Source: Bacteroidia bacterium
GTDB lineage: Bacteria > Bacteroidota > Bacteroidia > JABEUT01
Reading direction: 5' to 3'
DNA length: 64,000 nt
Assembly (NCBI GenBank): GCA_052325425.1
Contig: JBKQUY010000025.1
Location: 1,321-65,320 of the forward strand
This document shows positions 19,001 through 60,157 of this stretch, piece by piece. The first letter of the stretch is position 1, and each line of letters opens with the position of its first letter. A model generated the notes under the pieces. It searched no databases. It worked only from the letters and a program-made list of their open reading frames with translations, and had not been told where the DNA came from. A program made the translations under genes and the position numbers.

Positions 19001-20438
19001 GGCAAGTATTACAGCCGCCCCAGGCATCAGCACTACCTATACTGTTACAGGTACAAACGCATGCGGAGATAACCAGGCAATTGCAGCGGTGACGGTGAAT
19101 ACTACGCCGACAGTTGGCGTTTCTGCTTCATCTTCAACAATATGCCAGGGCAATTCATCAACACTTACTGCCAGTGGAGCAACAACCTATTCATGGTCAC
19201 CCGCAACCGGTTTAAACGTTTCGACAGGAGCAAGTGTAACCGCCAGTCCTGCTTCCACTACTACCTATACTTTAACCGGTACATCAAACGGTTGCTCCGA
19301 TGCGGCGACAATATCTTTAACCGTAAAACCGGCAACAGTAAACCCGGGGCCCGATACCAGTGTTAGCTGCGGTAGCAAATTGCAATTAAATGTAACCTGC
19401 AATCCACCCTCTCCAACCCTGGTGGTATGGTCTCCTTCTACTTATCTGAACAATTCCAATATACCTGACCCGGTATGCTCACTCACCGGCAGCGGCAATA
19501 TTACCTATACAGTAACTGCAGCGTTAAGTAACGGGTGTACTGCCAATGATACTATAACAGTGAGCCGCAAACCTGCGGATACTCATATAACCCTATGCGA
19601 AGTTTCGGCAGATACAGGTTCAAATTATAATATTATAGTTTGGGATACTGCAACCTTGAGGCATGCAGACAGCATAAGAATATATTATCTGAACAGTTCA
19701 TCGAAATGGGCTTGCCTCAGCGTGAGGCCATATAGGGGAAATGAGTATTATGTTGATTCTTTGAATAAACCCGATAAGGCTACTGTAAGATATAAATTAG
19801 TATCGGTTGATTCATGCGGAGATACCCTTTCAAGCCTCTGGCATAACACCATGTGGATACAAAATAATTCCGGTACATTTCAGTGGTCGGGTACCGGATA
19901 CCAGATGGAAGGTAATTCAGCGCCTGTAACAACATATATTTTATACCGCGATACGTTAAGTAATGGCCATTGGGATTCGATAAACTCAGTCAGCGGCACT
20001 CAAAATATTATGGCTGACCCTGATTATGCCAATTATCCTAAAGGCAGGTGGAGAGTTGTGGCTATATTAAATATCCCGGGTTGCCCATTGCCTGATTTAA
20101 GGCCCGATGCAATAAATAACACTACAACGCGAAGCAATACCCAGCACAATAACATTTTTACAGGTACATCAACCTTAGCTTCAACCCCAAATTCAATATC
20201 TGTTTATCCGAATCCTGCCGGCCAAACTTTGAATATTAAATTCAGTTATGCAAAAGCAGAGGATGCAAGGATAAGTATAGTTGATGTTACAGGAAGAGAA
20301 ATTTATTCAATTGAGAATTATCAAATTACCAAATCATCAAATCATCAAATTGACATTAGTGCTCTATCAACCGGAATATATTTTGTAAAGGTAGTAACCA
20401 ATACATCATCGCAGGTGGTGAAATTTGTGAAGTTGTAA
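16062..20438 (+). CDS. giant T9SS-secreted adhesin-like protein (Gly-rich N-domain + ~17 Cys-containing Ig-like repeats + T9SS C-terminal sorting domain)
   Basis: Signal peptide. Gly-rich N-terminal region (WTVPADVTQITITASGAAGA...GGGGG). Repeats of about 80 aa with C.G.S.TLTASG..Y.W...TTTYTVTG. C-terminus VYPNPAGQTLNIKF...GIYFVKVV is a type-A Por/T9SS CTD. Confidence 0.8.
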   Translation: MKNDLFLSALSRQIKTILAMTGFSVFTFSIACAQTNVSYSYTGSLQTWTVPADVTQITITASGAAGAYLSGGGGGSCNGGNGAVITNVTVTVVPGHTLNILVGGQPAAGGNASGGGGGTYIWDASNTSTPLVVAGGGGGSGYGASGGAPGSTTTTPTVGGGLGSGTAGTGGNGGTAGNGTGYACAGAGGAGFASSGSNGGTGSFVNASSPAAGGGICPIASTTPGAGGTSGCNGQAGGYGGGGGACFSGGGGGGYNGGAGGNTSNTWSTGGGGGGGSCVNGANPPSGSVAATNTGNGSVTISYVPTCTVSISPTSVTVCPGSSVTLTASGGSYYSWNGGSTTANASITVTPNTTTTYSVTGWDGSGCSDTATRTVIVNPAPVATLTMNPSSICSGSSTTLYAGESGSTAAPYTYTWQATSNPVPGTNTTNQASYSVSVSPTITDTYTLTVTDNNGCLGNSNVTITVYPNPVASLSASPNSICNGSSTTLTAGESGDNALPLSYQWSATANPPASNNNANVFSYTVSVSPTTTDAYSLTVTDANGCKDTISTKVIVNALPTITISPNPASICSGSSITLTASGGSYYSWNGGGTTSTPGLIVTPSTTTTYTVEGWNGNGCSNTVQSTVTVNSNPSLSVGSGISICTGNSGSLSASATGGKTPYSYMWLPGYIATSSPSVSPTSTTTYSVYVTDANGCKDNNADSTQVVTVNSTPTVAITPSPSNATICAGSSATLTASGGVTYLWNTGATTSSISVSPTINATYTVTGTNSEGCSSTATQSITINSLPSVSASATSLTICYGNSTTLTSSGAATYEWISPFGFLSSSQDQSVSPTSTTTYTVVGTSTQGCQGTQQTVTISVTPLPAVTVNPSPATVCLGNPVALSASGSASYTWSPSTGLNATTGASVSANPTAATTYTVTGSNSCGSHDTTVSVVLGLLPTVSASASPATICTGNSTNLTAGGATSYTWSPSSGLSVTTGASITAAPGISTTYTVTGTNACGDNQAIAAVTVNTTPTVGVSASSSTICQGNSSTLTASGATTYSWSPATGLNVSTGASVTASPASTTTYTLTGTSNGCSDAATISLTVKPATVNPGPDTSVSCGSKLQLNVTCNPPSPTLVVWSPSTYLNNSNIPDPVCSLTGSGNITYTVTAALSNGCTANDTITVSRKPADTHITLCEVSADTGSNYNIIVWDTATLRHADSIRIYYLNSSSKWACLSVRPYRGNEYYVDSLNKPDKATVRYKLVSVDSCGDTLSSLWHNTMWIQNNSGTFQWSGTGYQMEGNSAPVTTYILYRDTLSNGHWDSINSVSGTQNIMADPDYANYPKGRWRVVAILNIPGCPLPDLRPDAINNTTTRSNTQHNNIFTGTSTLASTPNSISVYPNPAGQTLNIKFSYAKAEDARISIVDVTGREIYSIENYQITKSSNHQIDISALSTGIYFVKVVTNTSSQVVKFVKL

Positions 20439-20718
20439 ATCCCGACATTTATCGTCGGGGAGTAAATCCAGATTAATTGTCGGAACAACAGGCATTGGTT
20501 TTGATTTGTTATTGCAGGGCGATAGCGGCTTATTTATCAGGCATTGCGGTGGAATGAATATTTGTTTTAAACTGACTGTCAGAGTCAATCTGTTTATTCC
20601 GATAAATATCAATCATATTTCGGCTAAAAAAGTTATTTCATTTTAGGGTAATTGTAAATAATAATATACATTTGATAATTAATACTTATCGCGGTATTGA
20701 AATTTTAAAACTATTACC

Positions 20719-23229
20719 ATGAAAAAAATTACATTGTTTTTTTTCCTGCTTATAGCCTGCAATGCTTTTGCCCAGGTAAACTCCATACCCAATGGTGAAT
20801 TTGAAAGCTGGACAAATCTTAACTGGATGGACCCTGTTAATTGGTGGTCCCTTAATGACACCTATGGCCCTAATGGACAGGGCAACTATACGAATACTGT
20901 TATAAGGAGTACTGATGCCTATCATGGCAAATATGCAGCACAATTGGAATCTATAAACTTTGGCCCTGACACTATTCCGGGTATGATTGGGTTGGGAATT
21001 GTTGGAGGAAGTCCGGTTGGGATTCCTATCAGCGAGGCTCCCACCGGAATAAGGCTATATTATACCTATAGCAGGACAGCACCCGACAGCGCTGCAATTG
21101 AGGTTGAATTTAAAAAAGCAGGCAGCGTTATTGGCATTTATTTATATAAAATATCGAACACAACTAACAGCTATCTCCTTTTTTCCCAAATGTTTTCTCC
21201 GGCTTTGTCGCAAACTCCTGATACCGTTTTATTTACAGCCTTTTCAACAACAAGATTGTTTTATTCAAAGGGATTTAAAAACGCGATTGGGTGGTGTTGG
21301 GCCCCGGGTAGCACATTTCAAATTGACAGTCTTTCTTTTACTGGCCTGGCAAGCCAACCTGCCGGTTTAAATGGCGATTTTGAACAATGGAATGCTGATA
21401 CAAACTGGATTGGCCCGGTTGATTGGAACGAACAAGAGGGATTCAGCTTAGCACGAACTACAGATGCCGTTTCGGGATTCGCAGCAGAATTAGGAACGAC
21501 ACTAACCAGTTGCACATCTTGTGTTGGACCGCAGTTCACAAAAATCAGAACAGGTAATGAAGGTGGTTCAGGTGATAATGGAGGTTATCCTTACACTAAC
21601 ACAATAGACACACTTGAGTTTTATTACAAATATGCCCCGTCATCAGGTAACCCCCTTGACTCAGGAGCAGTTTCTTTAGATTTTCATAACAGCACTGCTA
21701 ATAATCAATACTATATCATAACTCTTGGCGCTTCGGCTGTTTATAAGAAAGTAGATTATCCAATATCTATATCCGGCTTTACACCAGATAGTGTTGCAGT
21801 AGGCATTCAATCATCTTACTGTAATTCCTGCAGCAGCTTACCAATGGGTGATACCGGTTCTGTTATCAAAGTAGATAATATTCATTTCAAATCACAACAA
21901 CATCTTTCTGTATCACCTGCTGTTGCTTCTATCTGTGCAGGTACTGGAGGCGTTACTCTTGTTGCCGACGGAGAAACAAGTTATACCTGGGCGCCGGCTA
22001 CCGGCCTTAGCTGCACAAATTGTTCGGACCCTGTCGCTAACCCCTTATCTACAACTACCTATACTGTTACTGGCACTACAGGAACTTCACACAGCATAGT
22101 AAATGTAACAGTAACTATTAAGCAGTCCAGTGTGAAAATACCGCGCGACACATCTGTTTCCTGCGGAAAAAGCCTGCAGTTAAACGCAGTCTGCAATCCT
22201 TTATCACCAACAAGCGTAGTATGGAGCCCTTCGACTTATTTAAGCAGTACCAGCATAGTAAACCCTATTTGCACACCGACCTCTACTGTAACTTATACTT
22301 TAACAGTTGACTTAAATAACGGTTGCGTGGTTACTGATACTGTTACCGTGCAGAATAACCCTTTGGCAAGTATTTGTATAGTAACGGTAGATACCGGGTC
22401 AGACCATAATATAATAGTCTGGGACAACACCGGGTTAGCCCACATAGACAGTTTTAAAATCTATTACCAGAATTCCGCTTCGCTTTGGCAATTAATCAAA
22501 GCAGTGCCATTTTCCGCGCCCAATTATATAATTGATAGCACGCCTATAAATGATCCCAATGCCAATACGGTAAGGTATTGTTTAACAGCCAAAGATTCAT
22601 GCGGCGGTGAAGAACCAATTTCATCAAGCTCCTGGCAAAACACCCCATTTATTATTGGCAATGGGTCAGGAACTTTTAGCTGGGGTGGAACCGCGTATTT
22701 AGTTGAGGGTTCAGCACAGCCTGTGCGAACATACCGTTTGTTCAGGGACACATTAAGAAATGGCCATTGGCAGGCAATAGATTCGGTAGCTGGGAACCAA
22801 TACCAAATGACGGACCCGAATTATGCAATGTATCCCAAAGCAAGGTATCGTGTTGATGGGGAATTATTTAACGGTGGCTGCCCTTATAATGGTGATTTAA
22901 GGCCTTATGCCATCAACAATACAACAACCCGCAGCAATACGCAACATAATACAATAATAGGGGCAGTAAAACAAATTGTAAATCCTGCTGATGCTATATC
23001 AGTATATCCTAATCCTGCCGGGCAAACTTTGAATATTAAATTCAGTTATGCAAAAGCAGAGGATGCAAGGATAAGCATAGTGGATGTTACAGGAAGGGAA
23101 GTGTATTCTGAATTGTCAATGGTGAATGGTGAATTGTCAATGAATATAGCTAACTTATCAACCGGAATATATTTTGTTAGGGTAGTAACCAATACATCAT
23201 CGCAGGTGGTGAAATTTGTGAAGTTGTAA
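20719..23229 (+). CDS. T9SS-secreted protein, paralog of the preceding gene (shared C-terminal ~350 aa region + T9SS CTD)
   Basis: Signal peptide. The C-terminal half aligns with 16062..20438 (SVSCGKSLQLNAVCNPLSP... vs SVSCGSKLQLNVTCNPPSP...). The final about 90 nt and the post-stop hairpin are near-identical at the DNA level. Confidence 0.8.
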   Translation: MKKITLFFFLLIACNAFAQVNSIPNGEFESWTNLNWMDPVNWWSLNDTYGPNGQGNYTNTVIRSTDAYHGKYAAQLESINFGPDTIPGMIGLGIVGGSPVGIPISEAPTGIRLYYTYSRTAPDSAAIEVEFKKAGSVIGIYLYKISNTTNSYLLFSQMFSPALSQTPDTVLFTAFSTTRLFYSKGFKNAIGWCWAPGSTFQIDSLSFTGLASQPAGLNGDFEQWNADTNWIGPVDWNEQEGFSLARTTDAVSGFAAELGTTLTSCTSCVGPQFTKIRTGNEGGSGDNGGYPYTNTIDTLEFYYKYAPSSGNPLDSGAVSLDFHNSTANNQYYIITLGASAVYKKVDYPISISGFTPDSVAVGIQSSYCNSCSSLPMGDTGSVIKVDNIHFKSQQHLSVSPAVASICAGTGGVTLVADGETSYTWAPATGLSCTNCSDPVANPLSTTTYTVTGTTGTSHSIVNVTVTIKQSSVKIPRDTSVSCGKSLQLNAVCNPLSPTSVVWSPSTYLSSTSIVNPICTPTSTVTYTLTVDLNNGCVVTDTVTVQNNPLASICIVTVDTGSDHNIIVWDNTGLAHIDSFKIYYQNSASLWQLIKAVPFSAPNYIIDSTPINDPNANTVRYCLTAKDSCGGEEPISSSSWQNTPFIIGNGSGTFSWGGTAYLVEGSAQPVRTYRLFRDTLRNGHWQAIDSVAGNQYQMTDPNYAMYPKARYRVDGELFNGGCPYNGDLRPYAINNTTTRSNTQHNTIIGAVKQIVNPADAISVYPNPAGQTLNIKFSYAKAEDARISIVDVTGREVYSELSMVNGELSMNIANLSTGIYFVRVVTNTSSQVVKFVKL

Positions 23230-23669
23230 ATCCCGACATTTATCGTCGGGGAATAGACATTGATTTGATAATTTGATGATGTGCTGATTTGATGATTACC
23301 AAATCCCTCCTGTTCTTTTTCGCGCTCGTTAATAATATTTCAACTTTTTGTGCATTCCCAGCAATTCTACGGGATTAGCAAATGAATAGTTGATAAAATG
23401 TTTTATGATTTGCTTAATATTTTAAATAAAATGTTTATATTTGCAGTGAATAAACCTGTGGTTTATTCAAATTAAGAATTAAGAGTGAAGAACTAAGAAC
23501 AAAAAATCACTATAGTATTCATTTAAACTCTGTGAAACTCAGCAGGCTGTTTGTTCTGCGACCTCTGCGTGAAATGCTTTTAACCAATCTCTCCGAGAGG
23601 GGGGGAGGGGCAGGGTAGACATAACAAAATGAGTAAACTATTGATAATCAAATAAATGGAAAAAAGCCT

Positions 23670-23835
23670 TATGCCAAATAGTGCCAAAAGATGCCAAATC
23701 ATGCCAAAAAGCGCCAAGTGTTAAAATAAAGATGCCAAAGAATGCCAAATTTTAAGTTAAAAGTGAATAGTGAAAAACAAAAAAGAAAGCGGGGGGACAT
23801 AAAATGCCAATGTCATGACAAAAGATGCCAAAATC
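23670..23835. repeat. cluster of ~10 direct nATGCCAAA 9-mer repeats (iteron-like)
   Basis: tatgccaaa, agtgccaaa, gatgccaaa, catgccaaa, agcgccaag, gatgccaaa, aatgccaaa, aatgccaat, catgacaaa, gatgccaaa spaced about 10-11 bp apart. Confidence 0.7.
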
Positions 23836-24288
23836 AATTACGAATGAAAAAACCTTTTTGGACTCCCGATAAAACATGATGTCGGGATTGCAGTGTTTTT
23901 AGGGAAGCAACTTTGCGTAAACCTTTGCGCACTTTGCGAGAAAATGAAATTATGAATAAAAATTTCTGTGAATCTGTGGCTGAAATGAAAAATAATTCGT
24001 GTAATTCGTGTCTCCAAAACATAATAAACTCATTGCAAAAGTATGCAAAAAGTATGCAATTATAAAACATTGTAAATGAGGGTTTTGCAAAAAGCCACCC
24101 CCTCAAAATAGACAAAAAAAGACAAGAATGGACAAAAATTGCATATTTCCCCAATAAACAGAAAAAGGGGTATATGACAATTTAACATTTTTTGTCAGAC
24201 AAAAATCACCAAAACATGACACGAAAGCTTACATTTGGCATCCCAAAAAAATGGCACGGAATTTGAAAGAAGGGAATCGAACAAAAAA

Positions 24289-24394
24289 CAATTTGATAAT
24301 TTGATGATTTGGAGATTTGATGATGAAAAAGGCAATATATATTGAGCTATTTGTTATTCAATTACCAAATTATCAAACTACCAAATCATCAAAT
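24289..24394. promoter_or_regulatory. ~105-bp palindromic (TTTGATGAT)n ... (ATCAAAT)n element ending 30 bp upstream of groES start; candidate heat-shock operator/5'-UTR structure
   Basis: Left arm caatttgataatttgatgatttggagatttgatgatg. Centre aaaaaggcaat.... Right arm ccaaattatcaaactaccaaatcatcaaatt (reverse complement of the left-arm family). Confidence 0.5.
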
Positions 24395-24424
24395 TAAATT
24401 AGTAACCTTTAAATCTAAAAAATC

Positions 24425-24712
24425 ATGGCAAAAAAAGTAAATTTTGTTCCTCAGGGCGACCGGGTACTGGTTGAAGCTGCTGAGGCAGAGAGCAAAACAA
24501 CAGGTGGTATTATTATACCTGATACAGCAAAAGAAAAACCCCAAAAGGGAATTGTAGTAGCCGTAGGCCCGGGTAAGAAAAAAGATGAGCCTGTAACCCT
24601 GAAAGTAGGTGATAAAGTGCTTTATGGCAAGTATTCGGGCACTGAAATTGGCATTGATGGGAAAGAATACCTCATCATGCGCCAGGATGATGTTTTAGGA
24701 TATTTCGAATAA
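24425..24712 (+). CDS. groES: co-chaperonin GroES
   Basis: 95 aa. [29 protein letters not shown]...YGKYSGTEI matches Hsp10. Confidence 0.95.
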
Positions 24713-24719
24713 AAACAAA

Positions 24720-24807
24720 CCAATTTGATGATTTGATGATGTGCCAATTTGATGATAAAAAGGCATTTTCCATTATCAAATTATCAAATGGACTAATTAT
24801 CAAATTA
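24720..24807. promoter_or_regulatory. second copy of the palindromic TTTGATGAT/ATCAAAT element, ending 28 bp upstream of groEL start
   Basis: ccaatttgatgatttgatgatgtgccaatttgatgat, then aaaaaggcatt, then atcaaattatcaaatggactaattatcaaatt. Same architecture and same centre as the groES copy. Confidence 0.5.
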
Positions 24808-24816
24808 AATCAATAA

Positions 24817-26469
<1,653 letters not shown>

Positions 26470-28826: not shown

Positions 28827-30263
28827 TTATTGATAATTTGAAAGAGTGATTTTTTTCTCCAGTTCCTGTATGTATCCTTTAAAGCGCTTATCCGTATCAA
28901 TCAGGTTGTTTACAGTTTTACAAGCATGCAATACAGTAGCATGGTCTTTTCCGCCGCATTGCAATCCAATACTTGCCAACGAAGATTTGGTGAAACTTTT
29001 TGCAAAATACATTGTTATCTGGCGGGCCTGTACAACTTCTCTCTTGCGGGTTTTAGACTTAATCATTTCAATAGGCAAGCCAAAATAGTCGCATACCACT
29101 TTTTGTATGTAATCAATGGAAACTTCACGTGCAGTATTCTTCACAAACTTGTCAATCATCTGCTTGGCAAGTTCAAGTGTGATAGCTTTTTTATTAAGTG
29201 ATGATTGTGCAACCAAAGATATTAATGCGCCTTCCAATTCACGGACATTGCTATTAATACTATAAGCAAGGTATTCCACTACATCACTCGATATATCAAG
29301 GCCTTCCGTATATATCTTTCTTTGAAGAATAGCAATGCGCGTTTCAAGGCCAGGCATTTGCAGGTCTGCGGCAAGTCCCCATTTGAAGCGTGATAACAGG
29401 CGTTGTTCCATACCTTCAATTTCAACCGGGGGTTTATCGCATGTGAAAACCAGTTGTTTACTATTTTGATGCAAATGATTAAATATATGGAAGAATACAT
29501 CCTGCGTTTTTTCCTTTTTCGCAAGAAACTGCACATCATCAACTATTAATACATCTATCATCTGGTAGAAGTTAATAAAGTCGTTCTGTGTGTTATTCTT
29601 GGTCGCGTCAATAAACTGGGTAGTGAATTTTTCCGATGACAGATAAAGAACAGTCTTATTAGGCAGGTTATTCTTTATCTCAAGCCCAATTGCGTGTGCA
29701 AGGTGGGTTTTGCCCAAACCTACACCCCCATATATAAACAGAGGGTTAAAGGATGTTCCTCCAGGTTTCTGTGCAACAGCAAATCCTGCAGAGCGTGCCA
29801 GGCGGTTACAATCCCCTTCGATAAAATTCTCGAATGAATAGTTAGGATTAAGCTGAGGAGCCACATCCACCTTTTTTAAACCGGGTATGATAAACGGGTT
29901 ACGAATAGGATTCTTATTAATATCAATAGGGATATTAACAGGTTGTCCTTTTGCCGCTTGCTTATTTGAGCCCGGTATTTTTACTGTGTAAGGTTTGGCA
30001 TTGCGTGTATTTTCCATAACAATGCTGTACTCTAAGCGTGAATCAGAGCCCAATTCCCTTTTAATTGCTTTCTTAAGTAAAGTGATGTAGTGCTCTTCCA
30101 GGTATTCATAAACAAACTGGCTGGGTACCTGGATAGTCAATACATTATCTTTTAACTTAATGGGCTTTATGGGCTCGAACCACGTTTTAAAGCTCTGCGG
30201 AGTTACGTTATCTTTGATAATCGCAAGACACTGTTCCCAAACTTTAACGTGCGTTTTTTCCAT
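28827..30263 (-). CDS. dnaA: chromosomal replication initiator protein DnaA
   Basis: AAA+ Walker A GGVGLGKTHLAHAIG. Box VII/sensor motifs. C-terminal DNA-binding domain ...VVQARQITMYFAKSFTKSSLASIGLQCGGKDHATVLHACKTV. Confidence 0.92.
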   Translation of the reverse strand: MEKTHVKVWEQCLAIIKDNVTPQSFKTWFEPIKPIKLKDNVLTIQVPSQFVYEYLEEHYITLLKKAIKRELGSDSRLEYSIVMENTRNAKPYTVKIPGSNKQAAKGQPVNIPIDINKNPIRNPFIIPGLKKVDVAPQLNPNYSFENFIEGDCNRLARSAGFAVAQKPGGTSFNPLFIYGGVGLGKTHLAHAIGLEIKNNLPNKTVLYLSSEKFTTQFIDATKNNTQNDFINFYQMIDVLIVDDVQFLAKKEKTQDVFFHIFNHLHQNSKQLVFTCDKPPVEIEGMEQRLLSRFKWGLAADLQMPGLETRIAILQRKIYTEGLDISSDVVEYLAYSINSNVRELEGALISLVAQSSLNKKAITLELAKQMIDKFVKNTAREVSIDYIQKVVCDYFGLPIEMIKSKTRKREVVQARQITMYFAKSFTKSSLASIGLQCGGKDHATVLHACKTVNNLIDTDKRFKGYIQELEKKITLSNYQ

Positions 30264-36783: not shown

Positions 36784-36968
36784 ACGTTATTGCAAAGATA
36801 TGCCAAAGCAATTCAAATTTCAGAAAAAAATTGAATTGCGAATAATGATTAACGAATGATGATTAACGAAGTAAACCAGGCGACAATTTTTTGTTGTCCT
36901 TACATTATTCCATAGTGAATACTTTTTATCTCAATTTTAGGTTTAATCCTCATTATCAACTACTTAAA

Positions 36969-37067
36969 CGGGTTTACACTTTTTGACCCTTCTAAACATG
37001 CAATTACTTGGTAATCAAATATATAGTTTTTTAAAACCCCTGAAAAGTGTAAACCCGTGTAAACCCG
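36969..37067. repeat. ~100-bp inverted-repeat-bounded element, copy A (MITE-like)
   Basis: cgggtttacactttttgaccc...ccctgaaaagtgtaaacccgtgtaaacccg. The termini are inverted repeats (gggtttacacttttTGACCC / GGGGtgaaaagtgtaaaccc). About 85% similar to the copy at 52775..52874. Confidence 0.6.
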
Positions 37068-37514
37068 TTGCATAAATTAAAAACTGCACATTTTTGTCCC
37101 GCAATATATGCGGGATGCAATTTTTTTCCATTTTTTTGCTGAATTTTGTTAGCATTATTTTAAAATTCATTTTTAACACAGAGTCATTACGCTTCGGTTA
37201 TGATGCTGATATTTATCGTCAGCAAGCACTGAGAATAAAACTTCACAGAGGTTCACAGATCTTAATTCGTAATTAACTACCGCCAGGTCACCAATGTTTT
37301 TCATTTTTCACTTTTGGCTTTTCACTTAATAATGCAAATATAAACAATTTATTAATATAATATGAAAATATAATTTATTAAATTATCAACAACCACGGAT
37401 TATTTCAATCGAAGATGATTAGCATCAGTGAATAATCCGTCCAATCTGTGTCATCAGTGTTCTATTTGTATTGATAAAAACAAACCATAAATTTGAATCT
37501 TTTCAAATAGCGTT

Positions 37515-41116: not shown

Positions 41117-41261
41117 CTCTTCATATTGCCCTGTCTAACATACGTATCCGCAACAAAGGTAAAAAGTCTGAGCAGAAAGGCCTGGTTAAATCTATTGCTG
41201 TTTTCATTCCGAATAATATTTTCATTGAGCTATTGATAAAATTTGTACTACCTTTGTCCTG

Positions 41262-41335
41262 ACTTTAGGGGTGCTGTTAAGCTGAGATTATACCCTCAAG
41301 ACCTGATGCAGGTAATGCTGCCGAAGGGAAAAAGC
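41262..41335 (+). promoter_or_regulatory. TPP (thiamine pyrophosphate) riboswitch
   Basis: ttaGGGGTGCtgttaaGCTGAGAttataCCCtcaagACCTGATgcaGGTAATgctgccgaagGGAA. Contains the conserved CUGAGA, ACCUGAU and GGUAAUACC-like elements of the THI-box. Upstream of thiS-thiC. Confidence 0.85.
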
Positions 41336-41419
41336 GAGTTCCATCTCAGTTTATTATTCATTCCTGGTTACTTTAGCTAATGGCCAATGGCTGATAGCTG
41401 ATGGTTAATACATAAAAAC

Positions 41420-41667: not shown

Positions 41668-43584
<1,917 letters not shown>

Positions 43585-57595: not shown

Positions 57596-60157
57596 TTGCA
57601 TAGGGAGAATTTTATATATAAATTGAAGGTTTCCAGGTCATTGAACCATTGGCTAACAGCAGTTTTTTTGTTGCTGATACCTTTAATGGCGTTTTCTCAG
57701 TCATCGGTTACTTTGAATTGTAGAATAACCGAGAATGGCAAAAAACTTTCCGGTGTTGTGGTATCAATTTACGCTAATGGAAGTCTTCTTAGAACTGTCA
57801 ATACTGATAATGGAAAGTGTGATATAGATCTTGAACTGGGTGTGGATTATATTATTGCATTTACTAAACCCGGTTACATTACAAAACGCCTGGAGTTCAA
57901 TACAAAAAATGTACCTCCTGACAGGGCAAAAGAAGGATTTGGACAATACCCTATTGAAACTGAATTATTTCCGGAAATACCCGGGACCGACATTGATAAA
58001 ATACTTCAGCAACCGGTGGGTAAGTTTTCATATGACAAAAGCGCAAACAAGGCATTAGGAGATTTTGTATCTGATGAAGCTTATCATCAATCCATTCAAA
58101 GTATGTTGGATAAGATAGAAGCGGCAAGGAAAGCAGCAGAAGAAAAAGAGAAAGTGATTGACGCGCAATACAAAAAAATTATTGCTAAAGCAGATGGAGA
58201 GTTTGGCGCTAAGGATTATGCAAATGCTAAAACTGATTACCAGGCAGCTTCGCAATTGAAACCCGAGGAACAATATCCAAAAGACCAGCTTGCAGCAATA
58301 GACAAAGCCATAAACCAGGCCAGCGCTGATGCGGCAAGAAAAGCACAACAGCAAAAAACCGCAGACTCATTAGCTGCAGCCAAAAAAGCGGCGGATGCAA
58401 AAGCATCGGCGGATGCGGCGAAAAAAGCACAACAGCAAAAAACTGTGGACTCATTAGCGGCGGTTAAGAAAGCGGCAGCAGACAAAGCTGCAGCAGATGC
58501 GGCAAGAAAAGCTCAACAGCAAAAAACTGCGGACTCATTAGCGGCAGCTAAGAAAGCACAACAGCAAAGAACTGCGGACTCATTGGCCGCCGTGAAGAAA
58601 GCGGCGGCGGACAAAGCAGCAGCAGATGCAGCAAGAAAAGCACAACAGCAAAAAACTGCGGACTCATTGGCCACGGTTAAGAAAGCGGCAGCAGACAAAG
58701 CCGCAGCAGATGCAGCGAGAAAAGCACAACAGCAAAAAACTGCTGATTCATTAGCGGCGGTTAAGAAAGCGGCAGCGGACAAAGCGGCAGCAGATGCTGC
58801 AAGAAAAGCTCAGCAGCAAAAAATTGCTGATTCATTAGCGGCAGCTAAGAAAGCACAACAGCAAAGAACCGCTGACTCGCTAGCTGCTGCTAAGAAAGCA
58901 GCAGCGGACAAAGCTACAGCAGATGCGGCAAGAAAAACGCAACAGCAAAAAACAGCGGACTCATTAGCGGCGGTTAAGAAAGCTCAGCAGCAAAGAACCG
59001 CTGACTCACTGGCCGCTGCCAGGAAAGCGGCAGCGGACAAAGCGGCAGCAGATGCAGCCAGAAAAGCGCAACAGCAAAAAACTGCTGATTCATTAGCGGC
59101 AGCTAAGAAAGCTCAACAGCAAAGAACCGCTGACTCGCTAGCCGCTGCTAAGAAAGCGGCAGCGGACAAAGCTACAGCAGATGCGGCAAGAAAAGCGCAA
59201 CAGCAAAAAACTGCTGATTCATTGGCAGCGGTTAAGAAAGCTCAGCAGCAAAGAACCGCTGACTCACTCGCTGCTGCCAGGAAAGCGGCAGCAGACAAAG
59301 CCATAGCAGATGCGGCAAGGAAGGCACAACAGCAAAAAATTGCTGATTCATTAGCGGCAGCTAAGAAAGCTCAGCAGCAAAGAACCGCTGACTCGCTAGC
59401 CGCTGCTAAGAAAGCGGCAGCAGACAAAGCGGCGGCAGATGCTGCCAGGAAGGCACAACAGCAGAGAACAGCCGACTCGTTAGCAGGAATAAAAAAAGCA
59501 GCCGATAAGGCTCGTAATGATAAACTGGCAGAACTAAAAATACAAGCCAAGTACGATTCTCTTATTAGAATAGCAGATGCCGCTTTCAAAAAGAGTAATT
59601 ATTCTGTCGCAAAATCCAACTATTCTTCAGCCTCTGTAGTTAAACCAGGAGAATCATACCCTAAGAATCAGATAGATTCCATTGCAAAGTTGCAATCTGC
59701 TCAAAGTGCTCAAAATGACAAGTATAATGCAATCATATCCAAAGCAAATCAAAATTATTTTACTAAAAACTATAAGGTCGCTCTCACTCTGTACCAACAA
59801 GCTTCTCAATTAGAGCCAACTGCAAATTATCCTAAACAACAAATAGCCAAGATTCAATCAATTATATCAGACCAGCAAAGTCCGTCAAATAACCAAACGC
59901 AACCACCACCCCCACCTAAAGATATTCCTTCAGATTCTTCGGCAGTGGATTCTTTAGCGCTCAAATACAAACCCGGTGTTACGGAAGAGCACATTTATGA
60001 ACCGGGTTGTGAGGTTACCCGCCGCATTGTTGTAAAAAATGGACATGGCTGGGTTTATTTCCGGAAAGTATATAATTGGGGACAAACCTATTACTACAAG
60101 GGTGAACAACCTGTTACAGAAGACACGTGGAATGTTGAAACACAAAACTCAAATTAA
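57596..60157 (+). CDS. secreted protein with carboxypeptidase-regulatory-like N-domain, TPR-like motifs and a ~390-aa array of tandem Ala/Lys/Gln-rich repeats
   Basis: Signal/TM segment. About 13 copies of ADAARKAQQQ(K/R)TADSLAA(A/V)KKA[AADKAA] units. Confidence 0.6.
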   Translation: MHRENFIYKLKVSRSLNHWLTAVFLLLIPLMAFSQSSVTLNCRITENGKKLSGVVVSIYANGSLLRTVNTDNGKCDIDLELGVDYIIAFTKPGYITKRLEFNTKNVPPDRAKEGFGQYPIETELFPEIPGTDIDKILQQPVGKFSYDKSANKALGDFVSDEAYHQSIQSMLDKIEAARKAAEEKEKVIDAQYKKIIAKADGEFGAKDYANAKTDYQAASQLKPEEQYPKDQLAAIDKAINQASADAARKAQQQKTADSLAAAKKAADAKASADAAKKAQQQKTVDSLAAVKKAAADKAAADAARKAQQQKTADSLAAAKKAQQQRTADSLAAVKKAAADKAAADAARKAQQQKTADSLATVKKAAADKAAADAARKAQQQKTADSLAAVKKAAADKAAADAARKAQQQKIADSLAAAKKAQQQRTADSLAAAKKAAADKATADAARKTQQQKTADSLAAVKKAQQQRTADSLAAARKAAADKAAADAARKAQQQKTADSLAAAKKAQQQRTADSLAAAKKAAADKATADAARKAQQQKTADSLAAVKKAQQQRTADSLAAARKAAADKAIADAARKAQQQKIADSLAAAKKAQQQRTADSLAAAKKAAADKAAADAARKAQQQRTADSLAGIKKAADKARNDKLAELKIQAKYDSLIRIADAAFKKSNYSVAKSNYSSASVVKPGESYPKNQIDSIAKLQSAQSAQNDKYNAIISKANQNYFTKNYKVALTLYQQASQLEPTANYPKQQIAKIQSIISDQQSPSNNQTQPPPPPKDIPSDSSAVDSLALKYKPGVTEEHIYEPGCEVTRRIVVKNGHGWVYFRKVYNWGQTYYYKGEQPVTEDTWNVETQNSN
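58321..59480 (+). repeat. in-frame tandem DNA repeat (42-bp subunits, 84/126-bp units) inside 57596..60157
   Basis: Repeated gcagatgcggcaagaaaagcacaacagcaaaaaactgcggactcattagcggc... with minor variants. Confidence 0.75.

Follow-up and report, generated by a model that had tools for sequence, protein, structure and literature searches.

Helically phased TGCCAAA heptamers upstream of a sigma-54-type groES-groEL promoter in an uncultured Bacteroidia: putative regulator-binding sites

Introduction

In the Firmicutes, clp genes, groESL and dnaK are preceded by the CtsR operator, GGTCAAA-N3-GGTCAAA, which is present in two copies that overlap the sigma-A promoter. CtsR is not known to occur in the Bacteroidota. 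Heat-shock control in this phylum uses sigma-54-type promoters. A transcription start site map of F. psychrophilum places groES-groEL, dnaK, grpE-dnaJ, htpG, lon and clpB under a -24/-12 sigma-54 motif (PMC9723704), and a phylum-wide PSSM survey found the same sigma-54 chaperone enrichment across the Bacteroidota (PMC12316311). In P. gingivalis, where CIRCE is absent, EMSA showed binding of the OmpR-type regulator RprY to the promoters of groES, dnaK and clpB (PMC3646045); the RprY recognition sequence is given neither in that paper nor in PMC6032018. The cited work names neither the stress-sensing activator or repressor of this control nor the DNA site that such a factor would use.

The DNA analysed here is a 64-kb stretch (hereafter the window) from the metagenome-assembled genome of an uncultured Bacteroidia. 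It contains a region of ~1.2 kb, at 23230-24424, that lies directly 5' of the groES-groEL operon. The original prediction had described this region as rich in short direct repeats and had considered a replication-related element, a loading site for nucleoid proteins and a large regulatory region for the heat-shock operon. We compared the region with related loci and with the described systems, and we weighed what the most prominent of its repeats, an array of TGCCAAA heptamers, may be.

Results

The region upstream of groES is non-coding

The region 23230-24424 carries no coding signal. Six-frame translation and tblastn with the neighbouring T9SS C-terminal domains revealed no gene remnants, and the 106-aa minus-strand ORF has no Pfam match. 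A coding remnant was rejected, the sole tblastn matches coming from the 34-nt element of 8-bp units described below. The prediction that no credible ORF lies between the T9SS gene and groES was therefore borne out, and the coordinates and content given for the repeat-rich region also hold, with somewhat smaller repeat counts. A second assembly, L001, gives independent support: it is identical to the window from 24093 on and ends short of the array. The following hairpins were located:

23231..23251, plus strand: terminator-like hairpin TCCCGAC...GTCGGGG, which ends the T9SS-substrate gene at 20719..23229
23864..23887, no strand assigned: GC hairpin TCCCGATAAAACATGATGTCGGGA, whose arm AATCCCGACAT is an inverted copy of the T9SS-gene terminator arm
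24078..24104, no strand assigned: GC hairpin GAGGG...CCCTC

An identical copy of the terminator hairpin is found 3' of the paralogue, at 20441. Where several GC hairpins had been predicted, the two GC hairpins listed do exist, but their stability is modest (dG of -13.3 and -10.4 kcal/mol, with z near -2.5). A known structured RNA was rejected: Rfam returned no match at gathering score in the region, and permissive E-values gave hairpin-like miRNA models only, with E around 1.

A conserved -24/-12 promoter precedes groES-groEL

The 3' part of the region holds a promoter block, and a second promoter candidate lies far upstream:

24252..24266, plus strand: -24/-12 sigma-54-type promoter TGGCACGGAATTTGA (TGGCACG-N4-TTGA), in which 24253-24254 are the GG and 24265 is the invariant G
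24234..24241, plus strand: TTTGGCAT, an inverted form of the array unit, kept 5' of the promoter in L082, L083, L086, L087 and L213 (TTTTTTGGCATAGATTCG)
24175..24197, no strand assigned: inverted repeat TGACAA-N11-TTGTCA, a candidate enhancer or operator ~75 bp 5' of the -24 element
23409..23443, plus strand: distal sigma-A-type promoter candidate, with TTTG at 23409-23412 and TATATTTG at 23436-23443

TGGCACGGAATTTGA is the only intergenic match to the sigma-54-type pattern in the window. Its spacing is exact, with the GG and the G(C) 10 nt apart, and 12 of 13 positions fit the TGGCAC-N5-TTGC consensus; the -12 element reads TTGA rather than the canonical TTGC, the C at -12 being replaced by A. 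The promoter is kept in all close relatives. Across the phylum, 49 of 75 GTDB Bacteroidota loci carry TTGGCAYR at 40-120 bp upstream of groES, and in 49 of the 49 promoters aligned the invariant G follows the GG by exactly 11-12 nt, position 15 being variable. The pattern recurs before dnaK in two of the relatives: in L217, a 20-kb locus, it is found just twice, ahead of dnaK and ahead of groES, and in L219 it is found once, ahead of dnaK. The block TTTGGCAT...TGGCACGGAAATTGAAAG is the sole upstream part that aligns with seven related upstream regions.

We conclude that 23230-24424 serves groES-groEL as its leader and transcriptional control region. Judged by its sequence, the -24/-12 promoter is of the class used by the Bacteroidota chaperone regulon, and transcription of groES-groEL most probably starts ~12 nt 3' of it. 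The suggestion of a large regulatory region for the heat-shock operon is supported by the conservation of this promoter in relatives and across the phylum, and it is further backed by the relatedness of the array unit to cis-elements at sister-lineage heat-shock promoters.

The inverted repeat at 24175-24197 is of the TGTCA/TGACA type, which is enriched 6-8 fold 5' of groES in the 75 Bacteroidota loci. At the distal candidate, the block AAAnTGTTTAWWTTTG is kept in L082, L083, L086 and L087, ~470 bp 5' of groES; the Bacteroidota sigma-A-type promoter consensus is TAnnTTTG (PMC9723704). A CIRCE/HrcA operator before groES was rejected, because the CIRCE inverted repeat (TTAGCACTC-N9-GAGTGCTAA) has no match in the whole window with up to 3 mismatches allowed.

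Nine heptamers share a single helical register

Further upstream, nine (A/G)TGCCAAA units, six of them exact, occupy 23671-23832:

23671..23749, plus strand: main array, with seven (A/G)TGCCAAA units spaced 10 bp apart, laid out as five contiguous units, an 11-bp degenerate unit and two more
23804..23832, plus strand: two dispersed units, ATGCCAAT at 23804 and ATGCCAAA at 23825, with TGTCATGACAAAA between them, in the same helical register

Besides ATGCCAAT, the degenerate units are GTGCCAAA (23681) and GCGCCAAG (23711). All nine units are in phase at a 10.3-bp repeat (resultant R = 0.975), and TRF reports a 20-bp period in the array as well. The phased cluster of the original prediction (about ten nATGCCAAA repeats at about 10-bp phasing, 23670-23835) is real, with a slightly smaller count. 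Exact ATGCCAAA occurs 16 times in the 64-kb window against 7.3 expected, and 6 of these occurrences fall on the plus strand within 23671-23832, a further, inverted one being TTTGGCAT at 24234-24241; in 200,000 simulations, 6 of 16 random sites were never placed within 162 bp. Phased pairs of the form TGYCAWW-N3-4-TGYCAWW number four in the window, all in the array region, against 0.1 expected. The density of TG.CAAA reaches 10 per 600 bp here and at most 4 elsewhere in the window, and no comparable cluster was found elsewhere in the 64 kb. In the main array, mismatches affect 4 of 56 positions in the 8-nt cores as opposed to 7 of 14 in the 2-nt spacers (Fisher p = 6e-4, in a test that takes the units as independent although they are related by block duplication). 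A reading of the array units as minus-strand sigma-54 promoters was rejected, since a check by hand showed the invariant G at the proper distance in none of them.

Among A-tract phase vectors, computed from the tract centres, that of 23671-23770 is the largest in the window both at 100 bp (6.7, the 99.5th percentile being 4.8) and at 300 bp. With a cruder AAA-indicator Fourier scan the region ranks within the window's top 1%, though not first. Since the array contains the strongest helically phased A-tracts of the window, its DNA is likely to be intrinsically curved; this bears on the suggested nucleoid-protein loading site, for which no particular protein stands out.

The array is absent from relatives, and its heptamer occurs at a sister-lineage dnaK promoter

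The array is missing from all seven related upstream regions and is thus a recent expansion of ~440 bp between conserved landmarks. The gained segment consists of short direct repeats and extends to the promoter block at 24175-24266 from a palindrome on its left:

23641..23651, no strand assigned: palindrome TTGATAATCAA, also present in L082, the left landmark of the expanded segment

The gene upstream of groES differs in every relative, and the intergenic DNA is unalignable beyond the promoter block.

Related heptamers were found at other chaperone loci. In L219, TGCCAAA-N4-TGTCATA-N4-TGCCATT forms a pho-box-like triple repeat directly 5' of the -24 element of dnaK, with an exact TGCCAAA on the sense strand, 11-bp phasing and the orientation seen in the array. 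L217 carries the variant TGCCACC/TGTCATA/TGCCATA in the same place, and in Rufibacter (L037) TGCCAAAgtgTGCCAAc adjoins the groES promoter. Across the phylum (75 loci), sense-strand TGCCA is 1.9-fold enriched 5' of groES, compared with 8-fold for TGTCA. Among 80 GTDB loci found via GroEL, with upstream gaps of 36-680 bp, none has ATGCCAAA or ATTTGATGAT near groESL. The search for TGCCAAA clusters beyond the window was made in metagenomes and is uninformative for function: three successive TGCCAAA gave more than 120 matches, in unrelated organisms with a GC content of 0.26-0.70, which are ordinary tandem repeats. None of these adjoins groES or groEL, and none is homologous to the window.

Other repeats of the region

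Several further short direct repeats are present:

23911..23938, plus strand: CTTTGCG, three copies at unequal spacings of 12 and 9 bp; the minus strand reads CGCAAAG
23993..24011, plus strand: TAATTCGTG, two copies in perfect tandem
24034..24059, plus strand: TGCAAAA, three copies, including the perfect 11-mer AAAAGTATGCA twice
24105..24139, plus strand: rGACAAAAA, three copies at 10-bp spacing

The CTTTGCG repeats retain their core despite the unequal spacings. They and the rGACAAAAA repeats correspond to the predicted runs of ctttgcg(n) (23905-23940) and three gacaa(a/g)aa (24108-24140). For the three aagaa(t/c)taaga predicted at 23478-23510, four AATTAAG-like copies are indeed present at 23470-23499, but they are a mere 78% alike.

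A 34-nt element made of four 8-bp units (ATTTGATRAT...) occurs in the region at 23263, 24291 and 24360 (minus strand):

23261..23297, plus strand: copy A
24291..24397, no strand assigned: copies B (plus) and C (minus), a ~100-nt palindrome in the groES 5' leader
24723..24807, no strand assigned: copies D (plus) and E (minus), a palindrome in the groES-groEL spacer, outside 23230-24424

Neither this element nor the promoter at 24252-24266 had figured in the original prediction. ATTTGATRAT has 19 matches in the window against 1.2 expected, which group into six elements, with one copy within a coding region. As RNA, the B/C palindrome has a dG of -29 kcal/mol (z -4.8) and the D/E palindrome one of -26.8 kcal/mol (z -4.9). 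Relatives are without this palindrome at the leader position; L083, L084 and L086 carry the spacer copy, which L087-L091 lack. Both in its dispersed copies and in its presence or absence among relatives, the element conforms to REP/MITE-like repeats.

What the array may be

Our preferred reading, which we hold with moderate confidence and base on sequence comparison, is that the array represents putative amplified regulator-binding sites, providing extra docking for a heat-shock regulator. The retention of the core while the spacers vary, the common helical phase of the nine units, the uniqueness of the array in the window and the presence of TGCCAAA in the dnaK triple repeat of L219 (as a variant in L217) were all counted in its favour, as were the three CTTTGCG repeats, TGCCAAAgtgTGCCAAc of Rufibacter, the EMSA results with RprY and the phased A-tracts. 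Set against these are the absence of the array from the seven related regions, with no sign of selective maintenance, and its distance of 420-580 bp from the promoter, whereas in relatives the dnaK repeats lie immediately next to the -24 element. The weaker phylum-wide enrichment of sense-strand TGCCA than of TGTCA, the perfect 9-mer and 11-mer duplications nearby, which resemble plain slippage, and the metagenome matches without a chaperone link also weigh against binding sites, and no regulator gene was found nearby in the window. The TTGA at -12 was likewise counted against the best explanation.

The main rival is neutral repeat expansion, by which slippage and block duplication in AT-rich DNA at a fast-evolving junction would have produced a functionless minisatellite, perhaps seeded by the conserved TTTGGCAT/GCTTTTTTGGCAT element. 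This would fit a junction where the upstream gene changes from relative to relative, only the promoter block aligns and the array is found in none of the relatives. Perfect tandem duplications of 9 and 11 bp are close neighbours, further intergenic stretches of the window also contain short tandem repeats (e.g. at 36839, 37047, 47849 and 52679), 23701-23714 (ATGCCAAAAAGCGC) looks like the relatives' GCTTTTTTGGCAT in reverse complement, and equivalent arrays are common as tandem repeats in metagenomes. However, the spacers vary freely around a core that is retained (p = 6e-4), the CTTTGCG copies are unequally spaced, the dispersed units hold the helical phase and the heptamer fits the cis-element at sister-lineage dnaK promoters. 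We consider neutral expansion possible, if somewhat unlikely.

It is improbable, in our judgement, that the array matters only as architectural DNA, that is, as a static A-tract bend that binds a nucleoid-associated protein or aids looping at the sigma-54 promoter, the heptamer sequence being irrelevant. DNA bends can assist enhancer-promoter contact at sigma-54 promoters, and in addition to the window-leading phase vector of 23671-23770, the GACAAAAA and AAAAGTATGCA repeats also set A-tracts 10-11 bp apart. Yet the conserved GCC core is unnecessary for curvature, the bend lies 5' of the candidate enhancer rather than between enhancer and promoter, and the Fourier scan did not rank the region first.

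Action in RNA appears very doubtful. Here the distal promoter (23436-23443) would give rise to a leader of ~980 nt in which UGCCAAA repeats and hairpins would act by binding protein, by affecting stability or by sensing temperature. The block with the distal promoter is kept in relatives and stable hairpins occur in the leader and in the groES-groEL spacer, but no Rfam family fits, the sequence 3' of the distal promoter is unconserved, read-through from that promoter to groES is without support, and a 10-bp period in helical register points to double-stranded DNA.

A replication origin, plasmid-type iterons or a centromere-like site near dnaA is scarcely credible: dnaA is 4.4 kb off, the long AT-rich non-coding region contains phased direct repeats and synteny breaks at the locus, as is often the case at origins, but 23230-24424 has no DnaA box with up to 1 mismatch, the density of boxes at up to 2 mismatches is that of the background (5.9 per kb here, 4.0 per kb over the window), a rep or par gene is absent nearby, and the array is missing in relatives that keep the groES-to-dnaA order. 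The proposed check for a GC-skew switch at the region placed any switch elsewhere, since the GC3-skew step fit, weak overall, is best at 32-38 kb and not at 23-24 kb; raw GC skew tracks gene orientation. Another long intergenic region, 36784-37514, is a better, still weak, oriC candidate. Plasmid-type iterons were rejected, the units being 10 bp rather than 17-22 bp and the neighbours a T9SS-substrate gene and groES, with no rep gene; oriC was rejected on the DnaA-box scans, the raw GC skew and the GC3-skew fit. A replication origin in the groESL upstream region is not supported, nor is the iteron interpretation of the original prediction.

Discussion

If the array is indeed a set of binding sites, nine TGCCAAA heptamers 10 bp apart on one helix face would offer sites for a protein that reads direct heptamers head-to-tail. 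The likeliest binders are whichever regulator acts on the TGCCAAA-N4-TGTCATA-N4-TGCCATT repeat 5' of dnaK in sister lineages, a response regulator of the OmpR/PhoB type (RprY, for example) or the enhancer-binding activator required by sigma-54. Cooperative binding, together with the intrinsic bend of the phased A-tracts, could concentrate the regulator near the promoter or titrate it, and either effect might tune chaperonin expression. Apart from the array, a palindromic repeat of ~100 nt has been inserted into the groES leader.

A bolder version holds that the array arose by natural amplification of the element recognized by the Bacteroidota sigma-54 heat-shock regulator, RprY-like or a cognate enhancer-binding protein. 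We regard this as rather unlikely. If it were so, same-face heptamers would form a cooperative loading platform or a titrating sink, resetting the threshold of chaperonin induction in this lineage, and TGYCAWW direct repeats would be the operator of the sigma-54 heat-shock regulon. A candidate site multiplied nine-fold in perfect helical register beside a clean promoter provides a ready probe for the regulator protein, and the array is a natural experiment on how binding-site copy number tunes an essential operon. Should the array be neutral, the locus would present a clear case of repeat expansion and palindrome insertion rapidly remodelling the leader of a conserved operon. A false call of a replication origin 4 kb from dnaA is also removed.

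Among known systems, plasmid iterons and type II centromeres (parC/ParR, and the heptad arrays of omega protein) share with the array many short phased direct repeats in non-coding DNA. They differ in that here neither a rep or par gene nor DnaA boxes nor an AT-rich unwinding element was identified, and the array is chromosomal, directly before groES. In the CtsR operator, too, a heptamer with CAAA at its end is repeated directly at heat-shock genes, across 3-nt spacers and thus every 10 bp; the heptamer here is TGCCAAA, however, and the resemblance is formal only. REP/MITE-like repeats are matched by the 34-nt element in its six dispersed copies in the window, its pairing into ~100-nt palindromes and its variable presence in relatives, although no target-site duplication or transposase was identified and one copy lies within a coding region.

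Closer likenesses are found with the Pho box and other operators of the OmpR/PhoB type, 7-bp direct repeats with a period of 10-11 bp. The array, too, consists of direct heptamers in helical register, CTGTCAT occurs inside the sister-lineage dnaK repeat, and, as for RprY, the target is a heat-shock operon. The array has nine copies in place of two to four, however, lies far from the promoter, and the gene of such a regulator was not seen in the window. The Bacteroidota sigma-54 'SM4' promoters (PMC9723704, PMC12316311) are matched in the groES-groEL operon downstream, in the TGGCAC-N5-TTG spacing, in the position 40-160 nt before the start codon, in the recurrence of the element at dnaK in relatives and in its conservation across the phylum. 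They differ in the -12 element, which is TTGA here (position 15 is variable in the 49 aligned promoters); nine phased heptamers ~0.5 kb upstream are not described in either study.

Gene content and promoter of the groES upstream region

The region 23230-24424 belongs to an uncultured "Bacteroidia bacterium" MAG (GroES MGP8214760.1; GroEL 84% identical to the nearest GTDB GroEL) and has the following gene neighbourhood.

20719..23229, T9SS-secreted protein gene (Por_Secre_tail), 5' neighbour of the region
24425..24712, groES, 3' neighbour of the region
24835..26469, groEL, after groES
28827..30263, minus strand, dnaA

As originally predicted, 23230-24424 has no credible ORF: Pfam gives no match for the 106-aa minus-strand ORF, and neither six-frame translation nor tblastn with the neighbouring genes revealed a gene remnant. 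Elsewhere in the window, three tandem 148-bp units (1797-2223) each combine a promoter-like stretch with the 5' part of tRNA-Pro; in units 1 and 2 the anticodon arm is altered (TCCCGCAGTACTGCGGGA) and a T-run forms the end, and the complete tRNA-Pro(CGG) is found only in unit 3 (2148-2223), called by ARAGORN and not listed by Rfam at gathering score. A TPP riboswitch (63 bits) lies at 41257-41347, upstream of thiC (41749..43584), and an 853-aa ORF without Pfam match (57596-60157) is mostly built of 84-, 129-, 213- and 258-bp tandem coding repeats and is Ala/Lys/Gln-rich.

Among 75 GTDB Bacteroidota loci, 49 have TTGGCAYR 40-120 bp before groES. Exactly 14 positions past its first T, a G that played no part in the anchoring is invariant, and the two together form the GG-N10-G geometry of -24/-12 promoters. 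TGGCAY-N5-YYG has three matches in the window, the sole intergenic one being the groES copy; it matches twice in the 20-kb sister-lineage locus L217, before dnaK and groES, and once in sister lineage L219, before dnaK. The window has no CIRCE element, and P. gingivalis is likewise reported to be without one (PMC3646045). The assignment of a -24/-12 promoter to groES is well supported at the sequence level, and the promoter would be RpoN dependent.

A helically phased heptamer array

In the window, the exact unit ATGCCAAA has 16 occurrences against 7.3 expected, with six plus-strand copies within 23671-23832 and one inverted copy at 24234; of 200,000 simulations with 16 random sites, none placed six of them within 162 bp. 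With degenerate units included, the array numbers nine. Five follow one another at 10 bp, a decayed 11-bp unit separates these from two more, and the last two are dispersed. The nine lie in a single helical phase (R = 0.975 at 10.3 bp per turn), which bears out the helical phasing described in the original prediction; R is 0.977 when computed from the four block starts only, and random positions attain 0.95 in ~4% of trials. TRF reports a 20-bp period as well. Phased TGYCAWW pairs, scanned across the window, number 4 against 0.1 expected and are confined to the array region. Since the array is the strongest phased A-tract segment of the window, its DNA is probably bent.

The other short repeats listed earlier, CTTTGCG (three copies), TAATTCGTG (two), TGCAAAA (three) and rGACAAAAA (three), are all present though small. 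The two GC hairpins also exist but are modest (z about -2.5). TGACAA-N11-TTGTCA is found at 24175-24197.

Comparison with related lineages

GroES homologues at 93-99% identity led to contigs from seven related lineages. Downstream, the order groES-groEL-x-GT9-x-LMWPc-dnaA is kept, and the gene upstream of groES differs in each. In their upstream DNA (395-856 bp), nothing past about -15 aligns to the window except a single block, TTTTTTGGCATAGATTCG...TGGCAC...TTGGCACGGAAATTGAAAG, whose window form is TTTGGCAT (24234-24241) followed by TGGCACGGAATTTGA (24252-24266). Two further pieces are conserved; the first is a sigma-A-type promoter (AAAnTGTTTAWWTTTG) that precedes groES by ~470 bp in the relatives.

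23436-23443, sigma-A-type promoter, window form TATATTTG
23641-23651, palindrome TTGATAATCAA, third conserved piece, common to the window and the relative L082

The ATGCCAAA array was found in none of the seven related upstream regions. From TTGATAATCAA to TTTGGCAT is 593 bp in the window versus ~155 bp in L082; judged from these distances, the repeat cascade is a lineage-specific expansion of ~440 bp between conserved landmarks.

A 34-nt element of four 8-bp units, AATTTGATRATTTGATGATkTGnnnATTTGATRAT, had been overlooked. ATTTGATRAT occurs 19 times in the window against 1.2 expected, and the element itself has six copies.

23263, plus strand
24291, plus strand
24360, minus strand
24723, plus strand
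24772, minus strand
20316, minus strand, within a coding region

The copies at 24291 and 24360 form a ~100-nt palindrome in the groES leader (RNA dG -29 kcal/mol, z about -4.8), and those at 24723 and 24772 a palindrome in the groES-groEL spacer (-26.8 kcal/mol, z about -4.8). Relatives L083, L084 and L086 carry the spacer copy; in L082 other sequence takes its place, and it is missing from L087-L091, where spacers are 41-46 bp. By this distribution, the element behaves as a REP/MITE-like insertion. At 20316-20351 and 23109-23142, short-period DNA repeats encode the variable loop of two paralogous T9SS C-terminal sorting domains; one is the 34-nt element, translated ENYQITKSSNHQI, the other TGAATGG with a 7-bp period (SELSMVNGELSM). 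The codons flanking the loop and the 3' hairpin are almost identical in the two genes.

Regulator sites or slippage

There is about an even chance that the array represents amplified regulator sites. A heat-shock regulator would be recruited to, or titrated by, the multiplied sites; both the array-binding protein and the sign of its effect we infer. OmpR/PhoB-family winged-helix regulators bind heptamer direct repeats spaced by roughly one turn of the helix. RprY of P. gingivalis, a member of this family, binds the groES, dnaK and clpB promoters and acts as a repressor (PMC3646045).

Immediately before the -24 element of dnaK, L219 (2830-2895) carries TGCCAAA-N4-TGTCATA-N4-TGCCATT and L217 (3100-3175) TGCCACC/TGTCATA/TGCCATA. 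These sense-strand heptamers, spaced 11 bp, make a pho-box-like triple direct repeat abutting the -24/-12 element, which is a candidate for the operator of the heat-shock regulon in this clade. In Rufibacter, TGCCAAAgtgTGCCAAc adjoins the groES promoter. Phylum-wide, the 200 bp upstream of groES show an 8.2-fold enrichment of TGTCA and a 6.2-fold enrichment of TGACA; that of sense-strand TGCCA is only 1.9-fold.

Simple seeding of the motif and its later amplification would also fit. In inverted orientation, 23701-23714 looks like the relatives' GCTTTTTTGGCAT; the relatives lack the array, and the perfect 9- and 11-mer duplications beside it are typical slippage products. However, the 8-nt core has 4/56 mismatches against 7/14 in the 2-nt spacers (p = 6e-4, weakened because these statistics cover units related by block duplication), the CTTTGCG core is likewise kept despite unequal spacings, dispersed units hold helical phase, and the heptamer matches the dnaK cis-element of L219, all of which argues for more than slippage.

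Confidence in the regulator-site reading is limited by the lack of conservation, the low TGCCA enrichment, the nearby duplications, the 420-580 bp between array and promoter, and a metagenome scan in which three phased TGCCAAA occurred at >120 loci, highly diverse in origin and in no case close to chaperonin genes. High-GC marine metagenome contigs (L093, L107, L112, L117, L118, L130, L134, L159, L162, L165, L170) share a conserved ~90-nt element, ...AACAAAACACGACGTCAGTCCAATTGCCCATACAGACCAT(TGCCAAAAAT)n AAATAAA, a dispersed repeat unrelated to the window and possibly an introner-like element of picoeukaryotes.

Replication origin

A replication-related (oriC or iteron) role, one of the options first proposed, is not supported: 23230-24424 has no DnaA box with <=1 mismatch and only background density at <=2, rep and par genes are absent, the units measure 10 bp, and relatives sharing the groES-dnaA neighbourhood lack the array. 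When GC skew at third codon positions was fitted with gene orientation as a covariate, any switch fell, weakly, at 32-38 kb.

A second long intergenic region of similar style, 36784-37514, separates divergent DnaQ/GIY-YIG (DnaQ-like) and PIF1-like helicase genes. GTGTAAACCC occurs here twice (37047-37068) and once more, inverted, near 36970; TTCACAGA also has two copies, and the minus strand carries a promoter-like TGTTTATATTTGCA. Both the gene-orientation switch and the weak GC3-skew step are located here, and DnaA-box-like words (<=2 mismatches) reach 12 per kb versus 4 per kb window-wide, making it a possible, better oriC candidate than the groES region. Upstream of groES in L086 (4700-4800) and L087 (4790-4815), an inverted repeat, GGGTTGACAC twice ... 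GTGTCAACCC, belongs to the same family as window 36970-37068, a putative clade-specific palindromic element or operator.

Comparison with known systems

The repeat-rich, gene-free region described at the outset is confirmed, and a large regulatory region for the heat-shock operon is the sole option of the original prediction to gain support, through the conserved -24/-12 promoter before groES. The region is of a known kind: Bacteroidota have sigma-54-type heat-shock control regions, and this lineage has its own unusual form of one, with the nine-unit helically phased array and the palindromic insertions. In F. psychrophilum, which encodes three PF00158 activators, groES-groEL, lon, dnaK, grpE-dnaJ, htpG and clpB start at typical sigma-54 -24/-12 promoters (PMC9723704), and a PSSM survey found the predicted Bacteroidota sigma-54 regulon enriched for chaperone genes (PMC12316311). 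The groES promoter pattern of the window is consistent with both that TSS map and that survey.
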